Shown: positions 5,058 through 54,140 of the stretch, piece after piece
Layout: each line of letters begins with the position of its first letter
How positions within the stretch are numbered: position 1 is the stretch's first letter
Assembly: GCA_003598175.1 (NCBI GenBank)
Contig: QZKN01000050.1
Location: forward strand, 57,334-121,333
DNA from: Candidatus Omnitrophota bacterium
GTDB taxonomy: Bacteria; Hinthialibacterota; Hinthialibacteria; Hinthialibacterales; Hinthialibacteraceae
Length of the DNA: 64,000 nucleotides
Direction: 5' to 3'
Position numbers and translations under genes: made by a program
The notes under the pieces: model-generated
Told to the model about the DNA's origin: nothing
The model's database searches: none
The model's input: only the letters and a program-made list of their open reading frames with translations

Positions 5058-5613
5058 AATAGGTTCTCTCCCTTCTCGTTTCTTCATGGTAATTGAATAT
5101 TATGAATATAATACATGATGCAATTGATTCCCAACTTTGAATTCATGTTTCTTTCAATTCATCGGCGCACAGGATTACAAAAAATACGGTTTGTTCTCGC
5201 ATTGATTTTTGTATGGATTTAGAAAACCGGCGATACTCCTCTACCAGGGTTTATTCGTATAACAATCGTCATATCAGTCTGATTGATTGACTAAAATATT
5301 ACCACAAATCTCATGAATATGCAATCACAAAATCGATTTTTTCCATTTCTTTTGGAAGAAATCCGATTTTTTTGTAGACGAGCAAGGCAAAATGGGGGGG
5401 ACGCGGCAAGGAATGGCGGTTTTTGGGGGAGGAGAGCGTTTTCTTTTGATTTATGCAGGATTGCCGGATTTTTTCAACTTTTATATAGATAAGTCAATCA
5501 GCCGAACCGATGGCCGGTTGTTGCCAGCCATTCGATTGCAAATTCAAAAACATGAGTTATAGTATACCCGCAGCACTATATCACAACCGGATCAGGATAG
5601 GATCTTTTCGAAC

Positions 5614-10165: not shown

Positions 10166-12031
10166 ATGCTGAAAATAAGCGGCTTCGGCGACGAGATCGC
10201 CAAAGAATTTGAGACGCAACTACTAGAAATGCGGAAAATGAATTTGAATTATATCGCGCTGAGGAATTTATGGGGAACCAACATCCTCGACCTGAATCCC
10301 AAACAAAAAACACGCGCCAAAAACCTCTTGCGCGAATTTGGCATGGGCGTGTCCGAGATCGGCTCGCCGTTGGGAAAAATTCAAATCAACGATTCCTGGG
10401 AAAAGGAATGGGAGCGGTACGAACGGGCGATCGCAATGGCGCATTTTTTCCAATGCCCGCGCATCCGTATTTTTTCGTTTTATTTTCCGGAAGGCGATGC
10501 GCCGGAAAAACACCGCGCGTCCGTGATCACAAAATTGAAGGAAATGACGGATCGCGCGGAGAAGGAAGGGATCGTGCTGTTGCTCGAGAATGAAGGCCGA
10601 ATTTATGGAGAAGATGGCATTCACTGCCGTGATTTGGCGGAATCGATCAACTCGCCCAATTTTAAATTGATCTTCGATCCGGGTAATTTTGTCGTGTGCG
10701 GTACCAAGGCGTTTACGCAATGGTATGAGTTGATGGTGGATCACGTTGTGCATCTGCATATCAAGGATTGCACCTTCGACGGCACATTCACGCCGGCGGG
10801 GCAGGGTGAAGCCGAGATTCCCGAATTGATCGCCGCATTGAAGGAAAGGGGATTCTCTGGCTTCGCGACGATGGAGCCGCATTTGATGGAAGGCGGGCAA
10901 TTCGGCGGATTTTCCGGTCCGAAGCGGTTTGGGGAAGCGGTGGATGCGTTTCGGGACGTATGCGACCAAGCCGGAATGCCGCACCGGCAGGTTCGTGTGG
11001 GCGTGATCGGGATGGGATTCATCGGGATGTTCCATTGCCAGTGCATTCAGGAAGTGCCGCAAGCCCATCTTGTGGCCGTCGCCGATGTGCAAAAGGCGCC
11101 GAATTTGCAGAAAGCACAAGACCTTTTTAATATAGCGGCGTATGACAAACCGGATGATTTATTAAAACGAAAAGACATCGATGCAATCTCAATCGGTACG
11201 CCCAGCGGTCTGCATGGTGATCTGACCTTGAAAGCGGCGAAGCAGAAAAAACATGTGCTGACGGAAAAACCGATCGAAATCACGTTGGAAAAAGCGGATT
11301 GCATGATCAAAACCTGCCGCGAAAACAAGGTGAAACTCGGCGTGATATCACAGCGGCGAACCGATCCGGGCATGATCGAATTGATGGAGATTCTCAACGC
11401 CGGAAAGTTGGGAAAATTGATTCTCGGCGAAACGTACGTGAAATGGTATCGCAATCAGCAGTATTACGACAGCGGCGGATGGCGCGGCACCTGGAAGCTG
11501 GACGGCGGCGGATGCCTGATGAACCAGGGAATTCATTCCATCGACATGTTGCAGTGGGTGATGGGTGAAGTGGAAAGTGTGATGGCGCAAATGGACACGA
11601 TGGCGCACGAACGGATCGAAGTGGAAGATGTGGCGCAGGCGTTGCTGCGATTCAAAAACGGCGCGCTGGGAACGATCATTGGATCGACGGCGGTGTATCC
11701 GGGCATGAACGAGCGGCTGGAAATCAGTGGTACGAACGGAACCGTCGTAGTGGAAAAGAATCGTATTACTATGCGTGAGATTATGGGAGAGCAAAAAGCC
11801 GACAGCGAAACCATCGCCGATCGCGGAACCGGCGCCGCCGATGCGCAGGCGATTACCAATGAAGGCCATGTGATGCAGATCACCGATTTCATGCAGGCAA
11901 TTCTCGAGAATCGGGAACCGATGATCAACGGCGAGGAAGGGCGCAAGCCGCTGGAAATCATTCTGGCTGTTTACGAAGCGGCGAAAACCGGGAAACGCGT
12001 AAAACTGCCGCTGAAGACGAAGAAGAAATAA
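10166..12031 (+). CDS. fusion protein: xylose-isomerase-like TIM-barrel (sugar phosphate isomerase/epimerase) domain + Gfo/Idh/MocA oxidoreductase domain
   Basis: N-terminal ~290 aa are TIM-barrel-like (LKISGFGDEIAKEF...IVLLLENEG...FDPGNFVV). C-terminal ~340 aa are Gfo/Idh/MocA (VRVGVIGMGFIGMFHCQ...EKPIEITLEKAD). Single uninterrupted frame. GAGAGGA RBS before ATG 10166. Confidence 0.75.
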   Translation: MLKISGFGDEIAKEFETQLLEMRKMNLNYIALRNLWGTNILDLNPKQKTRAKNLLREFGMGVSEIGSPLGKIQINDSWEKEWERYERAIAMAHFFQCPRIRIFSFYFPEGDAPEKHRASVITKLKEMTDRAEKEGIVLLLENEGRIYGEDGIHCRDLAESINSPNFKLIFDPGNFVVCGTKAFTQWYELMVDHVVHLHIKDCTFDGTFTPAGQGEAEIPELIAALKERGFSGFATMEPHLMEGGQFGGFSGPKRFGEAVDAFRDVCDQAGMPHRQVRVGVIGMGFIGMFHCQCIQEVPQAHLVAVADVQKAPNLQKAQDLFNIAAYDKPDDLLKRKDIDAISIGTPSGLHGDLTLKAAKQKKHVLTEKPIEITLEKADCMIKTCRENKVKLGVISQRRTDPGMIELMEILNAGKLGKLILGETYVKWYRNQQYYDSGGWRGTWKLDGGGCLMNQGIHSIDMLQWVMGEVESVMAQMDTMAHERIEVEDVAQALLRFKNGALGTIIGSTAVYPGMNERLEISGTNGTVVVEKNRITMREIMGEQKADSETIADRGTGAADAQAITNEGHVMQITDFMQAILENREPMINGEEGRKPLEIILAVYEAAKTGKRVKLPLKTKKK

Positions 12032-44714: not shown

Positions 44715-45953
44715 ATGATTCCGAAGCCGTGTAATCGTTATTTAAAACGAGTTTATTCATTTTTCATTGCACTTTTGCTTGTATTGGCGTCGTCCGCGTT
44801 CGCCCTCCTGCTGATAGAAGGTTGTATGCGGATTACGGGCATTTCCGACCGCGATGTCGTGCTCAGCCGCGGCTTCATAACCGATCCGCATTGCGGATTT
44901 CGCCTGCGGCCGAACGTGCGGCAAAAAGGGATTGACGGCATTCTGTCCGCCGTCCACATCAATTCGCTGGGGATGCGCGATCGGGAATATTCCACGACAA
45001 AGCCGCCGGGAACCATTCGAATTTTGGCGTTGGGCGATTCTTTCGCCTACGGCCGCGTCGATTATGAGTTCAATTTTCTTACGTTGCTGGAAAATCAGCT
45101 CAACCAGACGCAAACGAATTGCGCCGTCGAATTGCTGAACGCGGGCGTTCCCGCCTATCAACCCATCAACGAACTGGCCTATCTGCAACATTACGGTTTT
45201 GCCTTCCATCCCGACATTGTTCTGCTCTGTTTTTATGTGGGCAACGATTTGCGGGCAAACGATGCGCCGGCAAGCGAGACGCATCCGGAAATTCCGTTTC
45301 AGCGAATGGAGAAGGAAGCCGACACACTGCCGTTTCACTCGTTGTTATCGTGGTCGGAATTGTATTGGACGCTCATGAATCTTTATATTCGTTCGCAGGT
45401 CGTGTCCGAAATTCAACAACGGATTCCGGATGCGCGTGAACGAAAACGGGACGATCCACGCCGCCTTTTTCCTGATTTCGGTTTCATGACAGAAGAGCAG
45501 TTTCGCGAAACGCTCGCCACACAAATGCGGAATCATCTGCTTCCGCAACACCGCAACGACTGGGATCGCGAGAATTTCGCCAACACCGTCGCGGTGATTC
45601 GGGCAATGGCGGATTTGTGTCGTGAGCGGAGCGTTCGGTTCGGCGTGGCGCTCTTTCCGGCGGAAGTGCAGGTCGATGAAGAAATCCGCGAACTGTTTTT
45701 TGAGATCATCGAAGGCATTATCACGTTGCCCGAACTAAGCGGAGAAGAACCACAGCAAACGTTGAAACAATTATTGAGCGAATCGAACATCGAAACCATC
45801 GATTTGCTGCCGGCGTTCATCGAAAAAGGGAAGATGCAGAAACTATATCTTCTTCGCGACACGCATTGGAATGAGGCGGGAAACCAATTGGCCGCCGAGG
45901 TCATGTACGAGATAGTGAATGGTTGGGTAAGGGAACGCTTTGAACGAGAGTAA
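44715..45953 (+). CDS. SGNH/GDSL-type hydrolase family protein, membrane-anchored
   Basis: IRILALGDSFAYG (block I GDS) and C-terminal DTHWNEAG (block V DxxH). N-terminal TM anchor. Confidence 0.65.
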   Translation: MIPKPCNRYLKRVYSFFIALLLVLASSAFALLLIEGCMRITGISDRDVVLSRGFITDPHCGFRLRPNVRQKGIDGILSAVHINSLGMRDREYSTTKPPGTIRILALGDSFAYGRVDYEFNFLTLLENQLNQTQTNCAVELLNAGVPAYQPINELAYLQHYGFAFHPDIVLLCFYVGNDLRANDAPASETHPEIPFQRMEKEADTLPFHSLLSWSELYWTLMNLYIRSQVVSEIQQRIPDARERKRDDPRRLFPDFGFMTEEQFRETLATQMRNHLLPQHRNDWDRENFANTVAVIRAMADLCRERSVRFGVALFPAEVQVDEEIRELFFEIIEGIITLPELSGEEPQQTLKQLLSESNIETIDLLPAFIEKGKMQKLYLLRDTHWNEAGNQLAAEVMYEIVNGWVRERFERE

Positions 45954-45989
45954 AGGCAAGGATTATTTTTTCACAGGTTTAATTGATTA

Positions 45990-46038
45990 TGGTCGGGGCG
46001 ACTGGATTCGAACCAGCGACCACCTGAACCCCATTCTT
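45990..46038 (-). other. tRNA 3'-end fragment (T-arm + acceptor 3' strand + CCA), no matching 5' half
   Basis: Reverse complement reads ...ggtcgctggttcgaatccagtcgccccgacca, giving a GGTTCGAATCC T-loop, 7-nt acceptor strand and CCA. No complementary 5' acceptor strand (cggggcg) or D-arm within 120 nt upstream. Confidence 0.55.
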
Positions 46039-46183
46039 GCGGTGTATGGTTTCTCTGCTACTTTGGCATTTCGCTAAACCCCATTTTTATTGGCTTTTTT
46101 GCATTTTACTACTTGTAGAGTACTAACGTTTACGGTACAATGTGCTAGCTCAGTGGTAGCTCAGAAAACGGAAGGGGAAAATC

Positions 46184-46531
46184 ATGAGAGAGTCAATAGA
46201 AGGGATTGAGCAGTTATTTAACGATGACACTTTGGAATATCCGGCGGCGGCGACGGCGACGGGCGAACGGTTCGGCGCGGCGGTCAAGGAACCGGATTCC
46301 ATCAGGGCGGCGGGCGCAATCCGGGAAATCATGAGGATACTTGCGGATGTTGACGAGAAGTTCCATCAACCGATCTTCCAGGCGGTGGAATCGCTTAGGC
46401 GCGTGACGGCGGGGGAATCGGTCCAGGCAATCGGTAACCAACTGGATGAAATCGACCGGGCACGGCGGCGACGGGCAAACGGGCGAACGGCGCGGCGGCG
46501 GTGGTTTTATCTACGGCTTGACCATTCTTGA
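46184..46531 (+). CDS. hypothetical Ala/Arg-rich protein containing a ~40-nt internal direct repeat
   Basis: ggcggcgacggcgacgggcgaacgg at about 46243 and ggcggcgacgggcaaacgggcgaacgg at about 46461. Coding status uncertain. Confidence 0.25.
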   Translation: MRESIEGIEQLFNDDTLEYPAAATATGERFGAAVKEPDSIRAAGAIREIMRILADVDEKFHQPIFQAVESLRRVTAGESVQAIGNQLDEIDRARRRRANGRTARRRWFYLRLDHS

Positions 46532-46701
46532 TCCCTCCCGGCGGTCCCCCGGAAAATCCTTCCCGAAAAAAAACAAAACTCCCCAAAAAAAATTCGAAAA
46601 AATCTTAAATTCGTGCAAACTTAAGTTAGTATGCAGTTATTACTCATATAAATTATAATATTAAGTACTATTTGCGTAACGCAAATGATAAAGGAGTAGA
46701 C

Positions 46702-46908
46702 ATGATGGAAAATTTGTTGAATGAAAAACAGGTTGGCGAAAAAATCGGTGTTTCTCAAAGAACGCTGCAACAGTGGCGGTTGTGTGGACGCGGTCCAAAA
46801 TTTGCAAGAATTTCCGGGCGGTGCGTAAGATATTTGCGGATTCCGGCGCCGATTCACGATGGCGCGTCATTTCAGACGGGTGGCAAGGGCAAGCGAAGCA
46901 GCCCTTGA
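46702..46908 (+). CDS. AlpA/excisionase-like helix-turn-helix DNA-binding protein
   Basis: LLNEKQVGEKIGVSQRTLQQWR...GRGPKFARISGRCVRY matches the AlpA/Xis MerR-like HTH pattern. AAAGGAG RBS. A 13-bp palindrome ttgcgtaacgcaa lies about 20 bp upstream of the ATG. Confidence 0.6.
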   Translation: MMENLLNEKQVGEKIGVSQRTLQQWRLCGRGPKFARISGRCVRYLRIPAPIHDGASFQTGGKGKRSSP

Positions 46909-47149
46909 AGGATCAATAAAAATAATAGAAATTATCTCACGAGAGAATTCCGTGTTTTATATCGAAGCAGGTGACCGTCGAGAAGGTTTAATTGATAGAA
47001 AGCCCTATCCGGAATTTGAAGCCTTCGCGACTCTGAAAACCAGCGAGGAGTTCGAATCCATTCCGAACGATCGATATTGCATCGAAGGGAATTTTGGCGC
47101 GTACTTTCCGCCGATACCATTGAAGCGAGAGGGGAAACGGCGTCGATGA
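46859..47149 (+). CDS. hypothetical protein encoded largely within direct-repeat copy A
   Basis: The 96-aa ORF overlaps the AlpA-like gene by 50 nt. A degenerate, stop-containing homolog lies in repeat copy B (47688..47819). Confidence 0.3.
   Translation: MARHFRRVARASEAALEGSIKIIEIISRENSVFYIEAGDRREGLIDRKPYPEFEAFATLKTSEEFESIPNDRYCIEGNFGAYFPPIPLKREGKRRR
46875..47105. repeat. ~230-bp direct repeat, copy A (partner 47656..47880), about 70-80% identical
   Basis: gacgggtggcaagggcaagcgaagcagcccttga...atagaaattat...gagagaattccgtgtt aligns with gacggatggcatgggtaagcgaaacaacccttga...atagaaattat...gagagaattccgtgtt. Confidence 0.7.
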
Positions 47150-47212
47150 TCAATAAAGCAGCCATCGTATTACAGGATTCGAGAGAAATTCGAAAGAAAT
47201 TTGAGGTAATCC

Positions 47213-47428
47213 ATGAAATTTACAGCAATAATTGAACGCGAAGGTGAAGGATACGTATCGCTCTGTCCGGAGTTGGATATCGCAAGTCAAGGGAATAGCG
47301 TCGAACAGGCCAGAGACAATCTTCGTGAAGCTCTGGAACTTTTTTTCGAGACCGCATCACCCGAAGAAGTCAAAGAGCGACTTCATGATGAGATCTTTGT
47401 CACCCAACTTGAGGTGCTATATGGGTAA
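47213..47428 (+). CDS. hicB: HicB family antitoxin
   Basis: MKFTAIIEREGEGYVSLCPELDIASQGNSVEQARDNLREALELFFE matches HicB/UPF0150. GAGGTAA RBS. Confidence 0.8.
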   Translation: MKFTAIIEREGEGYVSLCPELDIASQGNSVEQARDNLREALELFFETASPEEVKERLHDEIFVTQLEVLYG

Positions 47429-47642
47429 ATTGCGTATCCTTTCCGGAAAAGAGGTATGCTCCATCCTAAAAAATCATGGTTTTGAGGAAATTCGCCAACG
47501 CGGGAGTCACGTTGTCATGCAGAAGAAATTATCGCAAGGCACGATAACGGTTCCTGTTCCGGACCATGATGAAATTCGAATGGGAACACTGCAATCCATA
47601 ATCCGGCAGTCCGGATTGCCTCGAAGTGAATTTGAATCATAA
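47421..47642 (+). CDS. hicA: HicA family mRNA interferase toxin
   Basis: LKNHGFEEIRQRGSHVVMQK...TVPVPDHDEIRMGTLQSIIRQSGL matches HicA/YcfA. 8-nt overlap with hicB. Confidence 0.8.
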   Translation: MGKLRILSGKEVCSILKNHGFEEIRQRGSHVVMQKKLSQGTITVPVPDHDEIRMGTLQSIIRQSGLPRSEFES

Positions 47643-47655
47643 CTCCTTGGCATCT

Positions 47656-47880
47656 GACGGATGGCATGGGTAAGCGAAACAACCCTTGAGAAATCTATGC
47701 AAATCATAGAAATTATTTTGCGAGAGAATTCCGTGTTGCCTATCAAAGCCGAAGACGGAAGAGAAGGCTTATTAGACGTCAACCCCCTATCTGGAATCCG
47801 AAACTATCGCGCCGCTGAAGAACGGTGATGAGTTCGAGCGAATTTATAATGGAACCTATTTTTCAAATCGAGTTTACCTT
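47656..47880. repeat. ~230-bp direct repeat, copy B (degenerate)
   Basis: See copy A. Its internal ORF MQIIEIILRENSVLPIKAEDGREGLLD... is terminated early relative to copy A. Confidence 0.7.
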
Positions 47881-48011
47881 TTGGGGAGGGAGATTCCCAT
47901 CCCGGATTTGCGGGGAAACGGTGTTTTTGTATATACAGAGGGCTTTTACGGCGTTATGATAGGGAGTGATTGTCCGGACGTTTCAGTTTGAGGAGAGTGG
48001 AGGAACAAACC

Positions 48012-49346
48012 ATGTATGATCAAGACGGAGTTTCCCGGCGAGGTTTTTTGAAGACGGTTTCCGGCGGTTTTTTGGCGGCCGGTTCGCTTCCGCTGTTGAT
48101 TCCCGCCGGCGCCATCGGGCGGGAAGGGAAGACGGCGGCCAATGATCGCATTCATATCGGCTGCATCGGCGTGGGGCCGCAGGGGACGCATGACATGCGT
48201 CAAATTTTGAAACACGACGTTGCGCGGGTCATCGCGTTGAGCGACGTGAAGAGCAACGTGCTGGAGGAAAAGCGGCGTTTGGTGAATGAATTTTATGGCG
48301 ACGAGGACTGCGTCGGGTATCACGATTTTCGCGAATTGGTTGCGCGGGAGGATATCGACGGTTGTCTGGTGGCGACGACGGATCATTGGCACGTGTTGGC
48401 CTCTTTGGCGGCGGTGCGGGCAGGGAAGGACGTGTATATGGAGAAGCCGATGGGGTTGACGCTGGAGCAGGATCAGGCCATGCGGCAAGCGGTGCACGAG
48501 CATCAGCGTATTTTTCAATTCGGCACGCAACAGCGGTCGGATCCGGAGTTCCGTCAGGCTTGTGAACTGGTTCGGAATGGCAAAATCGGCGAGTTGAAAA
48601 CCATCAACGTGTGGTCGCCCGGCAGTTCTTCCGGCGGGCCGACCGAGCGCGCGCCGGTTCCGCCGTGGCTGGACTACGAAATGTGGCTGGGGCCCGCGCC
48701 TTATACACCATATACAACGGATCGTTGTGAGAATGCGTGGTGGTGGTTTATTTCCGATTATGCGTTGGGATTCATTGCCGGCTGGGGAATCCATCCCATC
48801 GATATCGCGTTGTGGGGGGCGGAAGACAAGTTTGCCGGTCCGTGGGAAGTGGAAGGGAAAGGGTGGTTTCCGAGCGAAGGCGTGTGCGACACCGCGATGA
48901 ATTGGGACGTGAAAATCAGACTGGGGAGCGGTGTGGTCATCGATTTTCGCGGGGATCCCTATCCGGACGAATGGAAGCAGCGTTATGAGGACGATTCCAG
49001 CCACGGCACCGCTTTCGAAGGCAGCGAAGGATGGATCAGCGTGCGGCGCGGCAAGATCAACGCGCATCCGAAGAGTATACTGGAGACGAAGCTGGGGCCG
49101 AACGATACGCCGCTGTATTACAGCGAGCATCATGCGGGGAATTTTCTGGATTGTATTCGCAGCCGTAAGGAAACGGTGTGCCCGGTGGATGCGGCGGTGC
49201 GAGGGGATACGCTGTGCCACATCAGCGATATTGCCATTCGATTGCAGCGGAAACTGGTTTTCGATCCGGAGACGGAGACGTTTGTCGGGGACGAGGACGC
49301 GAATCGGAAACTTTCGCGTCCGATGCGCGCGCCCTGGCATTTGTGA
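48012..49346 (+). CDS. Gfo/Idh/MocA family oxidoreductase with twin-arginine (Tat) signal
   Basis: SRRGFLKTVSGGFLAAGSL Tat motif. IGCIGVGPQG Rossmann motif. EKPMGLTLEQ. GGAGGA RBS before ATG 48012. Confidence 0.85.
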   Translation: MYDQDGVSRRGFLKTVSGGFLAAGSLPLLIPAGAIGREGKTAANDRIHIGCIGVGPQGTHDMRQILKHDVARVIALSDVKSNVLEEKRRLVNEFYGDEDCVGYHDFRELVAREDIDGCLVATTDHWHVLASLAAVRAGKDVYMEKPMGLTLEQDQAMRQAVHEHQRIFQFGTQQRSDPEFRQACELVRNGKIGELKTINVWSPGSSSGGPTERAPVPPWLDYEMWLGPAPYTPYTTDRCENAWWWFISDYALGFIAGWGIHPIDIALWGAEDKFAGPWEVEGKGWFPSEGVCDTAMNWDVKIRLGSGVVIDFRGDPYPDEWKQRYEDDSSHGTAFEGSEGWISVRRGKINAHPKSILETKLGPNDTPLYYSEHHAGNFLDCIRSRKETVCPVDAAVRGDTLCHISDIAIRLQRKLVFDPETETFVGDEDANRKLSRPMRAPWHL

Positions 49347-49421: not shown

Positions 49422-50117
49422 TTACAATTCCGGATCGACGCCCAGGGCGCGAAGTTTTGCCGCCAGTTTTTCCTTGATTTTTCGTTCCTGTTCGGCGTAT
49501 ATTCGTTGCTCAAAGGCGGTTGGATACATGACGCCTTTCCGGTCGCACCAGCGCAGCCAGAGGGCCGGGTATTGTTCGTAGTCGCCTTCCCACAGGGTCA
49601 ATCCCAATTCCACTTTGTCCAGCCAGTGAGTTTGTTTACGATGGTATTTTTCATCCTGCAGTTCATACACCAGCAGAACGGTATCGAGAATCTCATGATC
49701 GGGATCGAAGATGACGTAGTAGGGAACGCCGATTTCCTGATAAATGCGGAATTTCCGGTCGTTTTCTTCGCCTTCCCGATTGGAGACGACTTCCACGACC
49801 ACATCGGGCGGTTTGCCGAAGACCCAGGTGAAGTAGACGCGATTTTTTTTGGCGCGTTTGTCTTTGGCCGGTTTCACATCGAGGCTCAGCAGCATGTCGG
49901 GAACCAGGGGAGGTTCGTGCGGGTGATAGTATAAACCCACGTTGGTGCAGGCCAGAAACTGCCGGGGGCAGTTCCAGGAGGAATATAACGACTCTACCAA
50001 CAATCGATGTTGTTTGTCCGCAAACACGCTGTCCACCGGTGTATCGTCCTCTGTGATGAATTGTTCGTAATCGATTTCGTCCAAACGGGGAAACGACGCC
50101 ATTGTAATGGAGTTCAT
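49422..50117 (-). CDS. Uma2 family (DUF820) restriction-endonuclease-fold protein
   Basis: PDVVVEVVSNREGEENDRKFRIYQEIGVPYYVIFDPD is the PD-(D/E)xK-like Uma2 core. AGGAAGCAG RBS. Confidence 0.7.
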   Translation of the reverse strand: MNSITMASFPRLDEIDYEQFITEDDTPVDSVFADKQHRLLVESLYSSWNCPRQFLACTNVGLYYHPHEPPLVPDMLLSLDVKPAKDKRAKKNRVYFTWVFGKPPDVVVEVVSNREGEENDRKFRIYQEIGVPYYVIFDPDHEILDTVLLVYELQDEKYHRKQTHWLDKVELGLTLWEGDYEQYPALWLRWCDRKGVMYPTAFEQRIYAEQERKIKEKLAAKLRALGVDPEL

Positions 50118-51442: not shown

Positions 51443-51862
51443 TTATATCTTGTCGAGATTATCGTCGGTTGATAAAACTCCTTTTTGTTCCAAATAGATT
51501 TTTATCCTTTTGGAAAAATTTCTGGCGTCTCGAACCATCACTTCCGCATCCTCTTTTTCGATTTCCGATGAGACAATATAATCGGCAATATCTCTTTGAA
51601 TCTGTTCATGAGCCAATATTTCAGCCCATTCCTTCTCGATTTCACCTTTTTGAACAGGTAATTGACCAAAAAGTCGTTTTGCAGAAGCATGTCTTTTTAC
51701 ATCAATGCCATGAACCAAAAGAGCTGCTTTGGTCGCGTGCAAAACAGCATAATAGGAACGTGAAATGGAATCTTCGAATTATTCCAATGATAAAAGTGCT
51801 TCAGCGGATTTCAATGATTTTATAGAACGATTCCACTCGTCCACTATCGCCTCTTGATTCAT
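51443..51862 (-). pseudogene. HEPN domain toxin interrupted by an in-frame TAA
   Basis: ATG 51862..51860 encodes MNQEAIVDEWNRSIKSLKSAEALLSLE. TAA at 51781..51779 interrupts it. The same frame continues FEDSISRSYYAVLHATKAALLVHGIDVKRH...RDARNFSKRI. ATGA overlap with the upstream MNT gene. Confidence 0.6.
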
Positions 51863-52194
51863 GCGAATGAAATCCCTTCTTCTTGAATCCGATCACAAAA
51901 CACCGATTTACGGAGTTTAAGACGTTCCCACTCTTTGATCGTAAAAACAAAAATGGAGGGAACCACATTCGTTCCGATCGAAGGCCGAATCCCGATACTG
52001 GCGACTTGCTTTTTTAGTTTACGATCACCTTCGCGAATCAAAATTAGCAAATCCAAATCCGAATCACGTCTCGAATCCCCTCTTGCCTTTGAGCCATAAA
52101 GAAGAATATTTTCGACTAAATCCGGAAATCGATCATATAAATTCTCTCGATAGGAATTTAACCATTTTTTTTCTTCTTCATTCAACATTACCAT
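51859..52194 (-). CDS. minimal nucleotidyltransferase (MNT) family antitoxin
   Basis: LYGSKARGDSRRDSDLDLLIL carries the GS-x9-DxD nucleotidyltransferase motif. Confidence 0.75.
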   Translation of the reverse strand: MVMLNEEEKKWLNSYRENLYDRFPDLVENILLYGSKARGDSRRDSDLDLLILIREGDRKLKKQVASIGIRPSIGTNVVPSIFVFTIKEWERLKLRKSVFCDRIQEEGISFA

Positions 52195-53369: not shown

Positions 53370-53673
53370 GGATTCCTCGCGTATTTATTTGATTTTTCGA
53401 CTCGAATAAGTTGATTTATTTTACACCAAAAATTTGGGGAGTTTAGGACATCAGCCTCCTTTCCCTCCGGTCCGTGTTTTCACTCCCTACAATCCGGAAG
53501 ATGTGTGGAGCCGGTATACGAATCTCTTGTATCACGCGATTGTTGATTGAGGGAAAAATTTTGTTGGCAAGGTTCCAATTTCAATAACAACAATTCCATG
53601 ATATTATAAAGGTATATCATAAAAATCATACAGCTAATGTGGAGATTGTCGGGTGGAATGAATATCGATGGAA

Positions 53674-53706
53674 AAGGTGGGTTTCGCTTTGCTCAACCCA
53701 CCCTAC
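53674..53706. repeat. 33-bp hairpin-containing repeat aaggtgggtttcgctttgctcaacccaccctac, copy 1 (identical copy at 55755..55787)
   Basis: Exact 33/33 match. Stem ggtgggtt / aacccacc. Confidence 0.85.
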
Positions 53707-53715
53707 ATAGATAAA

Positions 53716-53883
53716 ATGAAAGTCAGTGAAATAATCAAAATTCTAAAAGAAGACGGCTGGTATCTTGATCGTACGCGGGGAAGCCATCGGCAATTCAAAC
53801 ACCCGATCAAACGGGGGAAGGTGACCGTTTCGGGTAAAGAATCGGACGATATGCCCATAGGATTGAAGTTCAGCGTTTTTTAA
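53716..53883 (+). CDS. hicA: HicA family toxin
   Basis: MKVSEIIKILKEDGWYLDRTRGSHRQFKHP is the canonical HicA N-terminus. The ORF-track start 53668 reads through the 33-bp repeat; true start is uncertain (53668 or 53716). Confidence 0.7.
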   Translation: MKVSEIIKILKEDGWYLDRTRGSHRQFKHPIKRGKVTVSGKESDDMPIGLKFSVF

Positions 53884-53912
53884 CAAGCGCAAATCGATAG
53901 GAGAAAATTACA

Positions 53913-54140
53913 ATGAAATATGCGGTTGTGATTGAAAAAGCGGAAAATAATTACGGGGCCTACGTTCCCGATCTTCCCGGATGCGTGGCGACAGCCGGCG
54001 CCGTCGAGGAAACCCTTCACATGATTAAAGAAGCCATCGAATTTCACATTGAAGGGTTGAAACTGGACGGCGAGCCAATCCCCAAACCATCCGCGATCTG
54101 TGATTACGTCGAAACCGAAGACATTTCTCACATCGCCTGA
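53913..54140 (+). CDS. hicB: HicB family antitoxin
   Basis: MKYAVVIEKAENNYGAYVPDLPGCVATAGAVEETLHMIKEAIEFHIEG. TAGGAGAAA RBS. Confidence 0.85.
   Translation: MKYAVVIEKAENNYGAYVPDLPGCVATAGAVEETLHMIKEAIEFHIEGLKLDGEPIPKPSAICDYVETEDISHIA

Follow-up and report, generated by a model that had tools for sequence, protein, structure and literature searches.

The 1.9-kb patch between 45990 and about 47925 of the 64,000-nucleotide stretch analysed here (the window) probably represents, at a rough probability of 0.6, what erosion has left of the distal (attR-side) border of an integrative, prophage-like element that once sat in a minus-strand tRNA-Pro(GGG) gene. From a neighbouring GDSL gene inward, the patch displayed a 47-nt piece of tRNA-Pro, a helix-turn-helix (HTH) gene of RDF/AlpA type preceded by a palindrome at an operator-like position, and a toxin-antitoxin cluster in which hicBA looks intact and two paralogs of the DUF2442 antitoxin family are damaged (Table 1). 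An eroded island border had been proposed in a sequence-only reading of this DNA, and it survived in part, its central idea being largely supported: the tRNA-Pro fragment with its typical boundary and the RDF/AlpA-type HTH gene just inside it spoke for such a border, while the repeats proved to be no signature of one, the HTH gene appeared clipped, and the partner att site was not found in the 64 kb of the window plus 9.7 kb.

The patch is an ordinary kind of genomic scar and carries little weight beyond annotation. It would record that prophages or integrative elements once passed through a tRNA-Pro site in a genome of Omnitrophota, a phylum whose mobile elements have rarely been studied. In annotation, tRNA-Pro fragment is the fitting label for the 47-nt piece, and probable pseudogene that for the HTH gene and for each of the two DUF2442 copies.

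Table 1. Coordinates of the features of the patch, with strand and basis of assignment
Feature	Position	Strand	Basis or remark
tRNA-Pro(GGG) 3' fragment	45990..46036	-	match to intact tRNA-Pro(GGG) genes
115-aa ORFan, reality uncertain	46184..46531	+	no family match
Perfect 8+1+8 palindrome ATTTGCGTAACGCAAAT	46670..46686	.	sequence read; one occurrence in window
RDF/AlpA-type winged-HTH gene, 68 aa	46702..46908	+	PHROG, PDB and L025 similarity; Pfam below cutoff
Repeat copy A, DUF2442-family gene plus 44 nt upstream	46872..47145	+	family-homologous part 46916..47125
hicB-like antitoxin gene, 71 aa	47213..47428	+	PHROG 497; short form, DNA-binding domain none detected
hicA toxin gene, 73 aa	47421..47642	+	Pfam HicA_toxin full profile
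Repeat copy B, DUF2442-family pseudogene	47653..47925	+	tblastn in two frames; copy A alignment; corrected translation

The tRNA-Pro(GGG) fragment

The tRNA piece encompassed the 3' 47 nt of the molecule, namely the anticodon loop, variable loop, T arm, 3' acceptor strand, discriminator A and CCA. It matched intact tRNA-Pro(GGG) genes at 45 of 45 nt (L048) and 47 of 48 nt (L082); across such genes 45-48 nt were identical or nearly so, while the 5' side of the fragment was unrelated, with a sharp break of identity at 46036, within the 5' strand of the anticodon stem. The minus-strand tRNA 3' piece lacking a 5' half that had been noted earlier at 45990..46038 was therefore real, its end having been placed 2 nt too far. 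ARAGORN returned no tRNA gene in the window, and a complete cloverleaf (acceptor, D, anticodon and T arms) was not found at 45990..46036. No gathering-level match was obtained with Rfam (best, an 8-bit partial tmRNA/tRNA-like 3' match), and no remnant of a tRNA 5' half rose above shuffled controls. A T-loop-like 15-mer inside DUF2442 copy A (47049..47063) was judged a chance match, since it encodes the EFE motif conserved in that family and GGTTCGAATCC, allowing one mismatch, was not enriched in the window.

The orientation of the piece fitted attR, since the core GDSL/SGNH gene adjoins it on the 3' side (36 nt separate the tRNA 3' end from the GDSL stop codon) and the accessory genes lie on its 5' side; 45990..46036 was accordingly read as an attR-like scar. 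An anticodon-loop class of tRNA integration sites was reportedly described by Williams in Nucleic Acids Res in 2002.

The break position coincided with that of other tRNA-Pro fragments. The 29-nt 3' end of the piece was used as a query, and its exact copies in public contigs (n = 164) lay in intact tRNA-Pro genes in 99 cases and in fragments in 56; the same 29 nt were present in 41 IMG/VR viral contigs. In 48 of the 56 independent fragments, tRNA identity stopped 13-19 nt upstream of the 29-nt pattern, a range that includes the 15 nt of the window, so the boundary is better accounted for by site-specific integration than by a random deletion.

The HTH gene and its palindrome

The product of the HTH gene resembled excisionases and recombination directionality factors. 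Pfam HTH_17 matched it at 17.1 bits (cutoff 27; profile positions 2-40 of 51), PHROG 66 ('excisionase and transcriptional regulator') at E 4.6e-5 and the excisionase PHROG 1553 also; the best solved-structure match was RdfS (PDB 8DGL; E 1.2e-5, residues 5-44), and the JGI annotation was AlpA. A word-indexed protein search returned the protein itself only. Compared with RdfS/AlpA/Xis directionality factors (8DGL; Pfam HTH_17 and Phage_AlpA), the protein shared the helix-turn-helix and wing region over residues 5-44, but it scored below the Pfam cutoff, left the C-terminal part of the domain unmatched and had no cognate integrase.

Relatives of the HTH protein were found only in two environmental prophages, L010 (IMGVR_UViG_3300047160_032576) and L025 (IMGVR_UViG_3300047160_020864), where an HTH_17/AlpA gene that reads inward comes after a tRNA-Pro(GGG) 3' fragment, within about 60-200 nt. 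Over 42 aa the window protein was 40% identical to the L025 homologue (pairwise E 3e-10, the alignment ending at residue 44) and 29% identical to that of L010. In both prophages the HTH gene is complete and followed by Prim-Pol/AAA_25 genes, with a terminase and a portal in L010 as well, whereas in the window an ORFan separates fragment and HTH gene, and toxin-antitoxin genes come next. The arrangement was not general: an inward-reading HTH_17 gene occurred within 1 kb at 2-3 of the 48 fragment-bearing loci, so the notion that AlpA-type genes generally accompany tRNA-Pro fragments was unsupported and was dropped. One iterative-HMM match (L119) was discarded as well, being by eye an unrelated AbiEi-type protein.

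Homology of the HTH protein was confined to about residues 3-46, the C-terminal 22-24 residues being unrelated and overlapping the DUF2442-A unit. As similarity ends at residue 44, the gene looks clipped and was probably truncated or replaced at its 3' end. The AlpA/Xis-like gene of the sequence-only reading was thus present, and of excisionase/RDF type by weak matches (Pfam below cutoff), though it appears cut after residue 44. The palindrome proposed upstream of it was also real, and longer than first described: it reads ATTTGCGT-A-ACGCAAAT and lies between a TATAAT hexamer (46654..46659) and AAGGAG (46691..46696), the ribosome-binding site of the HTH gene, of which it is a candidate operator.

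Integrase, partner site and surroundings

No integrase or recombinase domain was detected in the ORFs tested or in the Pfam gene calls covering window positions 36.7-73.8 kb, in line with the earlier remark that no integrase lies nearby. From position 1 of the window to 9.7 kb past its right end, neither a second att copy nor an intact tRNA-Pro was found, and the att core occurred as a single copy in the window and in L164, not as the two copies (attL and attR) of a complete element. The sequence-only reading had made its case depend on a second copy of the tRNA 3' segment; as no partner site was found in the 64 kb plus 9.7 kb, the case for an element is unproven within that range, yet not refuted. 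Compared with the tRNA att scars of tyrosine-integrase prophages and islands, the window shared a fragment that begins in the anticodon stem-loop and extends to the 3' end, core DNA on the 3' side, accessory genes on the 5' side and a break where other tRNA-Pro fragments break, but it contained one of the two repeats, no integrase, and no intact tRNA over a distance of at least 27.7 kb on the side where one would be expected. No DNA similarity was obtained between 46037..47960 and GenBank phages or PLSDB plasmids.

Formation of the patch as an integration border would have involved a tyrosine integrase recombining attP with the block of the tRNA gene from anticodon stem to 3' end, so that a duplicate tRNA piece remained at the element's far end. 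A deletion at a later stage would have taken away the integrase and the rebuilt tRNA along with the genes for replication and structure. The HTH gene would have been clipped at about 46834, and small addiction-type genes may have persisted or accumulated and would now be decaying too. Decay of the element was supported by the end of the HTH alignment at residue 44, by ATA at the start position of DUF2442-A and by the frameshift in DUF2442-B.

A resident tRNA-Pro gene could also have been reduced to a stump, its 5' half lost when an unrelated deletion occurred or when the toxin-antitoxin and HTH genes inserted, with no site-specific integration; we regard this as a possible but clearly less probable history. 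The single copy of the segment and the lack of an integrase and a partner site in the ranges searched agreed with it, as did toxin-antitoxin islets elsewhere on the contig that lack tRNA pieces. The break, however, falls within the boundary cluster of 48 of 56 independent fragments, where a random break in this 7-nt range of a 77-nt gene would be expected about 1 time in 10, and an RDF-type gene lies just inside, as in prophages L010 and L025.

Base composition favoured an element border, in that G+C dropped to 0.40-0.47 between 46.4 and 48.0 kb, the flanks having 0.52-0.58. Low-G+C toxin-antitoxin islets without a tRNA piece, however, occurred elsewhere in the window (HEPN/MNT at about 51.4-52.2 kb and a second hicAB at 53.7-54.1 kb), so the toxin-antitoxin genes of the patch may be unrelated to the scar. 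The 115-aa ORF between tRNA piece and HTH gene had a G+C of 0.58 and contained a GC-rich direct repeat of about 33 nt (46251-46285 and 46463-46500), read in two frames; it matched no Pfam, NCBIfam or PHROG family and only itself among 5.8 billion proteins.

It is unlikely that the scar belongs to a larger composite island (>28 kb) extending rightward past the contig end, with the intact tRNA and the integrase beyond the sequence. Mobile or defence-type genes are indeed scattered to the right (two Uma2, HEPN/MNT, the second hicAB, Fic/DUF4172, and HsdM at the contig end), and the sequence examined stops ~1.2 kb before the contig end. Against this, 48-70 kb encoded mostly housekeeping-type carbohydrate and oxidoreductase functions, and G+C over 48.0-49.6 kb was as high as in the left flank.

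A chimeric contig of the metagenome-assembled genome (MAG), joined at the tRNA piece, appeared very improbable. tRNA genes and repeats are frequent points of misassembly, but the proteins of the locus are on record from two contigs (132,294 and 133,102 bp, possibly non-independent assemblies), and a chimera would leave unexplained the RDF-type gene and the decayed toxin-antitoxin genes beside the piece. The source MAG belongs to a sparsely sampled part of Omnitrophota. The left-flank GDSL protein retrieved one locus in a scan of genome contigs (56% identical, no shared neighbours, no tRNA) and no match in a metagenome scan.

The direct repeats as DUF2442-family paralogs

Sequence comparison indicated that the two repeats are old, diverged paralogous genes of the antitoxin-like DUF2442 family. 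The sequence-only reading had described direct repeats of about 230 bp bracketing hicBA; they were real, diverged and longer (about 270 bp each, the right ends near 47145 and 47925 being approximate), with about 78% column identity and indels. As coding paralogs with near-saturated synonymous divergence (dS about 1.2, dN/dS about 0.3), they were rejected as structural boundaries of a hicBA cassette or of the element. Direct repeats around a toxin-antitoxin pair can thus be merely two diverged paralogous genes.

The family assignment was obtained with sensitive searches. In phmmer, nine proteins matched (E 3.7e-6 to 8.5e-4), eight of which pass the DUF2442 (PF10387) cutoff, and tblastn displayed DUF2442-family similarity in both copies. 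A direct match to PF10387 was absent for copy A even at E 10 and stayed below the gathering score for the corrected copy B (E 0.12, 13 bits). With the 96-aa ORF of copy A as query, the word-indexed protein search returned that ORF alone, the link to DUF2442 being revealed by the full HMMER scan only.

Both copies were damaged in different ways, and the earlier description of an ORF of 96 aa in copy A and a defective counterpart in copy B held. Copy A carries ATA at the position of its relatives' ATG, with the frame open from an ATG at 46859 and the 96-aa ORF running to 47149. Copy B kept its ATG (47697) and acquired a +1 frameshift in a C5 run around 47783-47787, with deletions in its C-terminal part; its tblastn matches were split over two frames (47697..47789 and 47785..47862).

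The DUF4160-DUF2442 two-gene module is a candidate toxin-antitoxin system and a plasmid persistence module in Thermus (PMC12724237). Both repeat copies correspond to its DUF2442 side. In relatives, DUF4160 lies directly upstream with an ATGA stop/start overlap, whereas the window locus had no DUF4160 gene and both of its DUF2442 copies are damaged. The junction of copy A (GATCAATAA), set against that of L165 (GATCAATGA), was suggestive of such an overlap; a DUF4160 remnant upstream of each copy was nevertheless discarded, as tblastn detected no DUF4160 similarity in the window and a possible tail of no more than about 15 codons was not significant. It is conceivable, though improbable, that the DUF2442 genes stayed long under purifying selection after loss of DUF4160, as orphan 'anti-addiction' antitoxins or as regulators recruited beside the RDF-type HTH gene and hicBA, copy A being expressed from a new upstream start overlapping the HTH gene; the dN/dS of about 0.3 at that dS and the 5' boundary common to both copies would support such selection.

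The run of five or six short same-strand genes, separated by short spacers, recalls an integron-like cassette array (CALIN) with the repeats as cassette boundaries, and toxin-antitoxin genes are common in integron cassettes, but this origin was rejected as the least probable of all, since a simple motif search (not a covariance model) gave 0 attC-like R''(RYYYAAC)...R'(GTTRRRY) pairs 50-150 nt apart on either strand of 45950..48050, and the repeats are coding paralogs.

The hicB-hicA pair

The hicB-hicA pair looks intact and is likely the only part of the patch still active. In this family, HicA is a ribosome-independent mRNA interferase restrained by HicB. The proposed pair was borne out for HicA, which matched Pfam HicA_toxin (PF07927) over the full profile (1-58 of 58; E 8.5e-20, 71 bits against a cutoff of 27) and PHROG 353 toxin (E 1.1e-14), and weakly for HicB (PHROG 497 HicB-like, E 5.4e-6; PDB TTHA1756, E 0.01; Pfam UPF0150 and HicB_lk_antitox below cutoff). 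The full-length HicA_toxin domain and the small upstream HicB-like gene, overlapping by 8 nt as read directly in the sequence, are shared with HicAB type II systems; in contrast to these, the antitoxin comes first and HicB, at 71 aa, is of a short form in which no DNA-binding domain was detected. The second hicAB of the window (53668..54140) showed the opposite gene order to the pair described here.

Locus organization and proposed origin

The locus consisted of a 1.9-kb stretch flanked by genes for a GDSL/SGNH hydrolase and a Gfo/Idh/MocA oxidoreductase, with every ORF inside it on the plus strand. G+C content was lower over most of this stretch (0.40-0.47 over 46.4-48.0 kb vs 0.52-0.58 in the flanks). 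The components of the eroded integrative-element border described in the sequence-only reading were confirmed overall, while its interpretation was partly supported, the direct repeats being paralogous genes instead. With a probability of roughly 60%, the locus is the fossil attR-side edge of a prophage-like element in tRNA-Pro(GGG), left with decaying addiction-type genes after a later deletion. After integration into tRNA-Pro(GGG), the integrase, most of the element and the rebuilt tRNA would have been lost in this deletion; small genes of addiction type would have stayed, the majority of them now decaying. Such a locus would be a familiar kind of genomic scar. No close relative for synteny comparison was found in the collections searched.

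Features of the locus and of the downstream region (window positions unless L164, the source-contig sequence reaching 9.7 kb past the right end of the window, is indicated)
Feature	Position	Strand	Remarks
GDSL/SGNH hydrolase gene	44715..45953
13-nt direct repeat	45975..45987, 46984..46996		AGGTTTAATTGAT
tRNA-Pro piece	45990..46036	-	last two bases of anticodon stem 5' strand, anticodon loop (anticodon GGG), anticodon stem 3' strand, variable loop, T arm, 3' acceptor strand, discriminator base, CCA
115-aa ORF	46184..46531	+
~33-nt direct repeat	46251..46285, 46463..46500		GGCGACGGGCRAACGG...CGGCGCGGCGG
Palindrome	46670..46686		perfect 8+1+8
HTH gene	46702..46908	+	68 aa
DUF2442 copy A	46872..~47145	+
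hicA	47421..47642	+
DUF2442 copy B	47653..~47925	+
Gfo/Idh/MocA oxidoreductase gene	47970..49346 (ORF)		start about 48010
Uma2-family genes	49422..50117; L164 16307..16864	-; -
HEPN/MNT-type pair	51443..52194	-
Second hicA-hicB pair	53668..54140	+
Fic/DUF4172 and HsdM genes	L164 18395..21389		about 70768..73762, beyond the window

A tRNA-Pro fragment broken in the anticodon region

The partial tRNA indeed lacked its 5' half: ARAGORN called no tRNA in the 64-kb window, Rfam gave nothing at gathering level, and the sequence upstream of 46036 was related to no tRNA. Read on the minus strand from 46036 to 45990 (GAATGGGGT TCAGG TGGTC GCTGG TTCGAAT CCAGT CGCCCCG A CCA), it was identical at 45/45 positions to the intact tRNA-Pro(GGG) gene of the comparison locus L048, and at 47/48 to several others. 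The duplicate 3' segment expected as an att partner was not found in the window, nor was any trace of the 5' half, and both were also absent from the 9.7 kb to its right.

The exact 29-nt 3' end occurred in 41 IMG/VR contigs and >120 metagenome contigs. All 164 exact matches in the fetched loci were classified: 99 lay within an intact tRNA-Pro, 56 were fragments only, and 9 were too near a contig end to be judged. Of the 56 fragments, 48 kept tRNA identity up to a point 13-19 nt upstream of the 29-nt pattern, within the anticodon stem-loop; for the window fragment this point lay 15 nt upstream. This extent is the identity block expected for integrases whose recombination site is the anticodon region of a tRNA gene. 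A spacer of 36 nt separated the tRNA 3' end from the stop codon of the core GDSL gene, and the accessory genes lay on the 5' side of the tRNA, an orientation consistent with an attR-type copy. The main rival, breakage of a resident tRNA-Pro gene by an unrelated event, appears unlikely.

Metagenome contig L090 carried an intact tRNA-Pro(UGG) directly followed by a tandem duplicate of its own 3' end (5272..5381), and a third copy of this end 6.4 kb away (11772..11800), an arrangement that has the clear appearance of an attL/attR pair plus one additional scar. In the window, one copy of the exact 13-nt repeat was separated by 2 nt from the CCA terminus of the fragment, and the other fell within DUF2442 copy A; chance alone would give about 0.07 matches of this kind in 3 kb. 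The corresponding site of copy B matched at only 8/13 positions.

HTH gene and palindrome

The HTH gene scored below the Pfam HTH_17 cutoff (17.1 bits vs 27; profile positions 2-40 of 51), matched PHROG excisionase families (E 4.6e-5), and was annotated as AlpA by JGI. Residues 5-44 matched RdfS (8DGL), a solved recombination directionality factor (E 1.2e-5). Of the loci fetched, only two IMG/VR prophage contigs, L025 (40% identity) and L010 (29%), contained a relative. In each, it was the first gene on the inner side of a tRNA-Pro(GGG) fragment, read inward and preceded Prim-Pol/AAA_25 genes; L010 also had terminase and portal genes downstream. tRNA-Pro fragments and HTH_17 genes were not generally paired in this way (2-3 of 48 fragment loci). 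Both alignments ended at residue 44, past which the relatives carry a conserved last helix and the window protein an unrelated tail running into the next repeat unit; the gene is therefore read as probably clipped near 46834. The reported palindrome, a candidate operator, was perfect, occurred once in the window, and had a TATAAT hexamer on one side and the ribosome-binding site on the other.

DUF2442 paralogs, hicBA and the 115-aa ORF

The direct repeats around hicBA were real and longer than first described, with about 78% column identity and indels between copies. When 1.84 billion representative proteins were scanned in full with HMMER, residues 21-82 of the 96-aa ORF were linked to nine small proteins, eight of which were above the Pfam DUF2442 cutoff. 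By tblastn, the first DUF2442 residue fell at 46916 in copy A (codon ATA) and at 47697 in copy B (codon ATG), where a second frame took over after a five-C run around 47785. With dS about 1.2 and dN/dS about 0.3, the copies are old paralogs on which purifying selection acted for most of their history; these values ruled out recent structural repeats. An integron-like array was also rejected.

In relatives, a DUF4160 gene lay directly upstream of DUF2442, with an ATGA stop/start overlap. The likeness between copy A and the comparison locus L165 at this junction (GATCAATAA vs GATCAATGA) and in the upstream frame (DGWQGQAKQPLKDQ* vs DWQLAVNGKKPFAIRGLDQ*) gives a hint that a lost toxin gene may have left its tail as the 44 nt preceding each copy; tblastn gave no support for such a tail. 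On Thermus plasmids, the DUF4160-DUF2442 pair acts like a toxin-antitoxin module and improves plasmid persistence (PMC12724237), and DUF2442 is noted in a preprint as frequently occurring in antitoxins (10.1101/2023.12.08.570793). The DUF4160 partner appeared degraded upstream of a DUF2442 gene (P0003) in another comparison locus (L167 200..744), with only '...LPPGRHKLIGAWIEIHHEDL' left in frame and no gene called. Toxin loss with DUF2442 kept may be a recurrent event.

HicA was verified by a full-length HicA_toxin domain (E 8.5e-20); the 71-aa gene upstream, overlapping it by 8 nt, was HicB-like on weaker evidence. The 115-aa ORF had no relatives at all, and its reality as a gene is doubtful given its internal GC-rich ~33-nt repeat, whose copies lie in different reading frames, the second encoding an odd Arg-rich tail.

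Other mobile or defence-type genes nearby

A larger island extending beyond the contig end would accommodate the mobile or defence-type genes scattered rightward (Uma2, HEPN/MNT, second hicAB, Fic, HsdM), and is improbable, more so than tRNA breakage by an unrelated event. The HEPN/nucleotidyltransferase pair, another toxin-antitoxin-like module, occupied a low-G+C islet (0.38-0.42) amid core genes, without an adjoining tRNA piece. The second hicA-hicB pair, also in a low-G+C pocket, had the toxin first, opposite to the order in the hicBA described here. Each of the two Uma2-family genes (putative restriction endonuclease-like) adjoined a Gfo/Idh/MocA oxidoreductase gene on the opposite strand, a pairing repeated 20 kb apart. 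The source contig ended in a Fic/DUF4172 gene and a type I restriction-modification methylase gene (HsdM), possibly a defence island and possibly the cause of the assembly break there.
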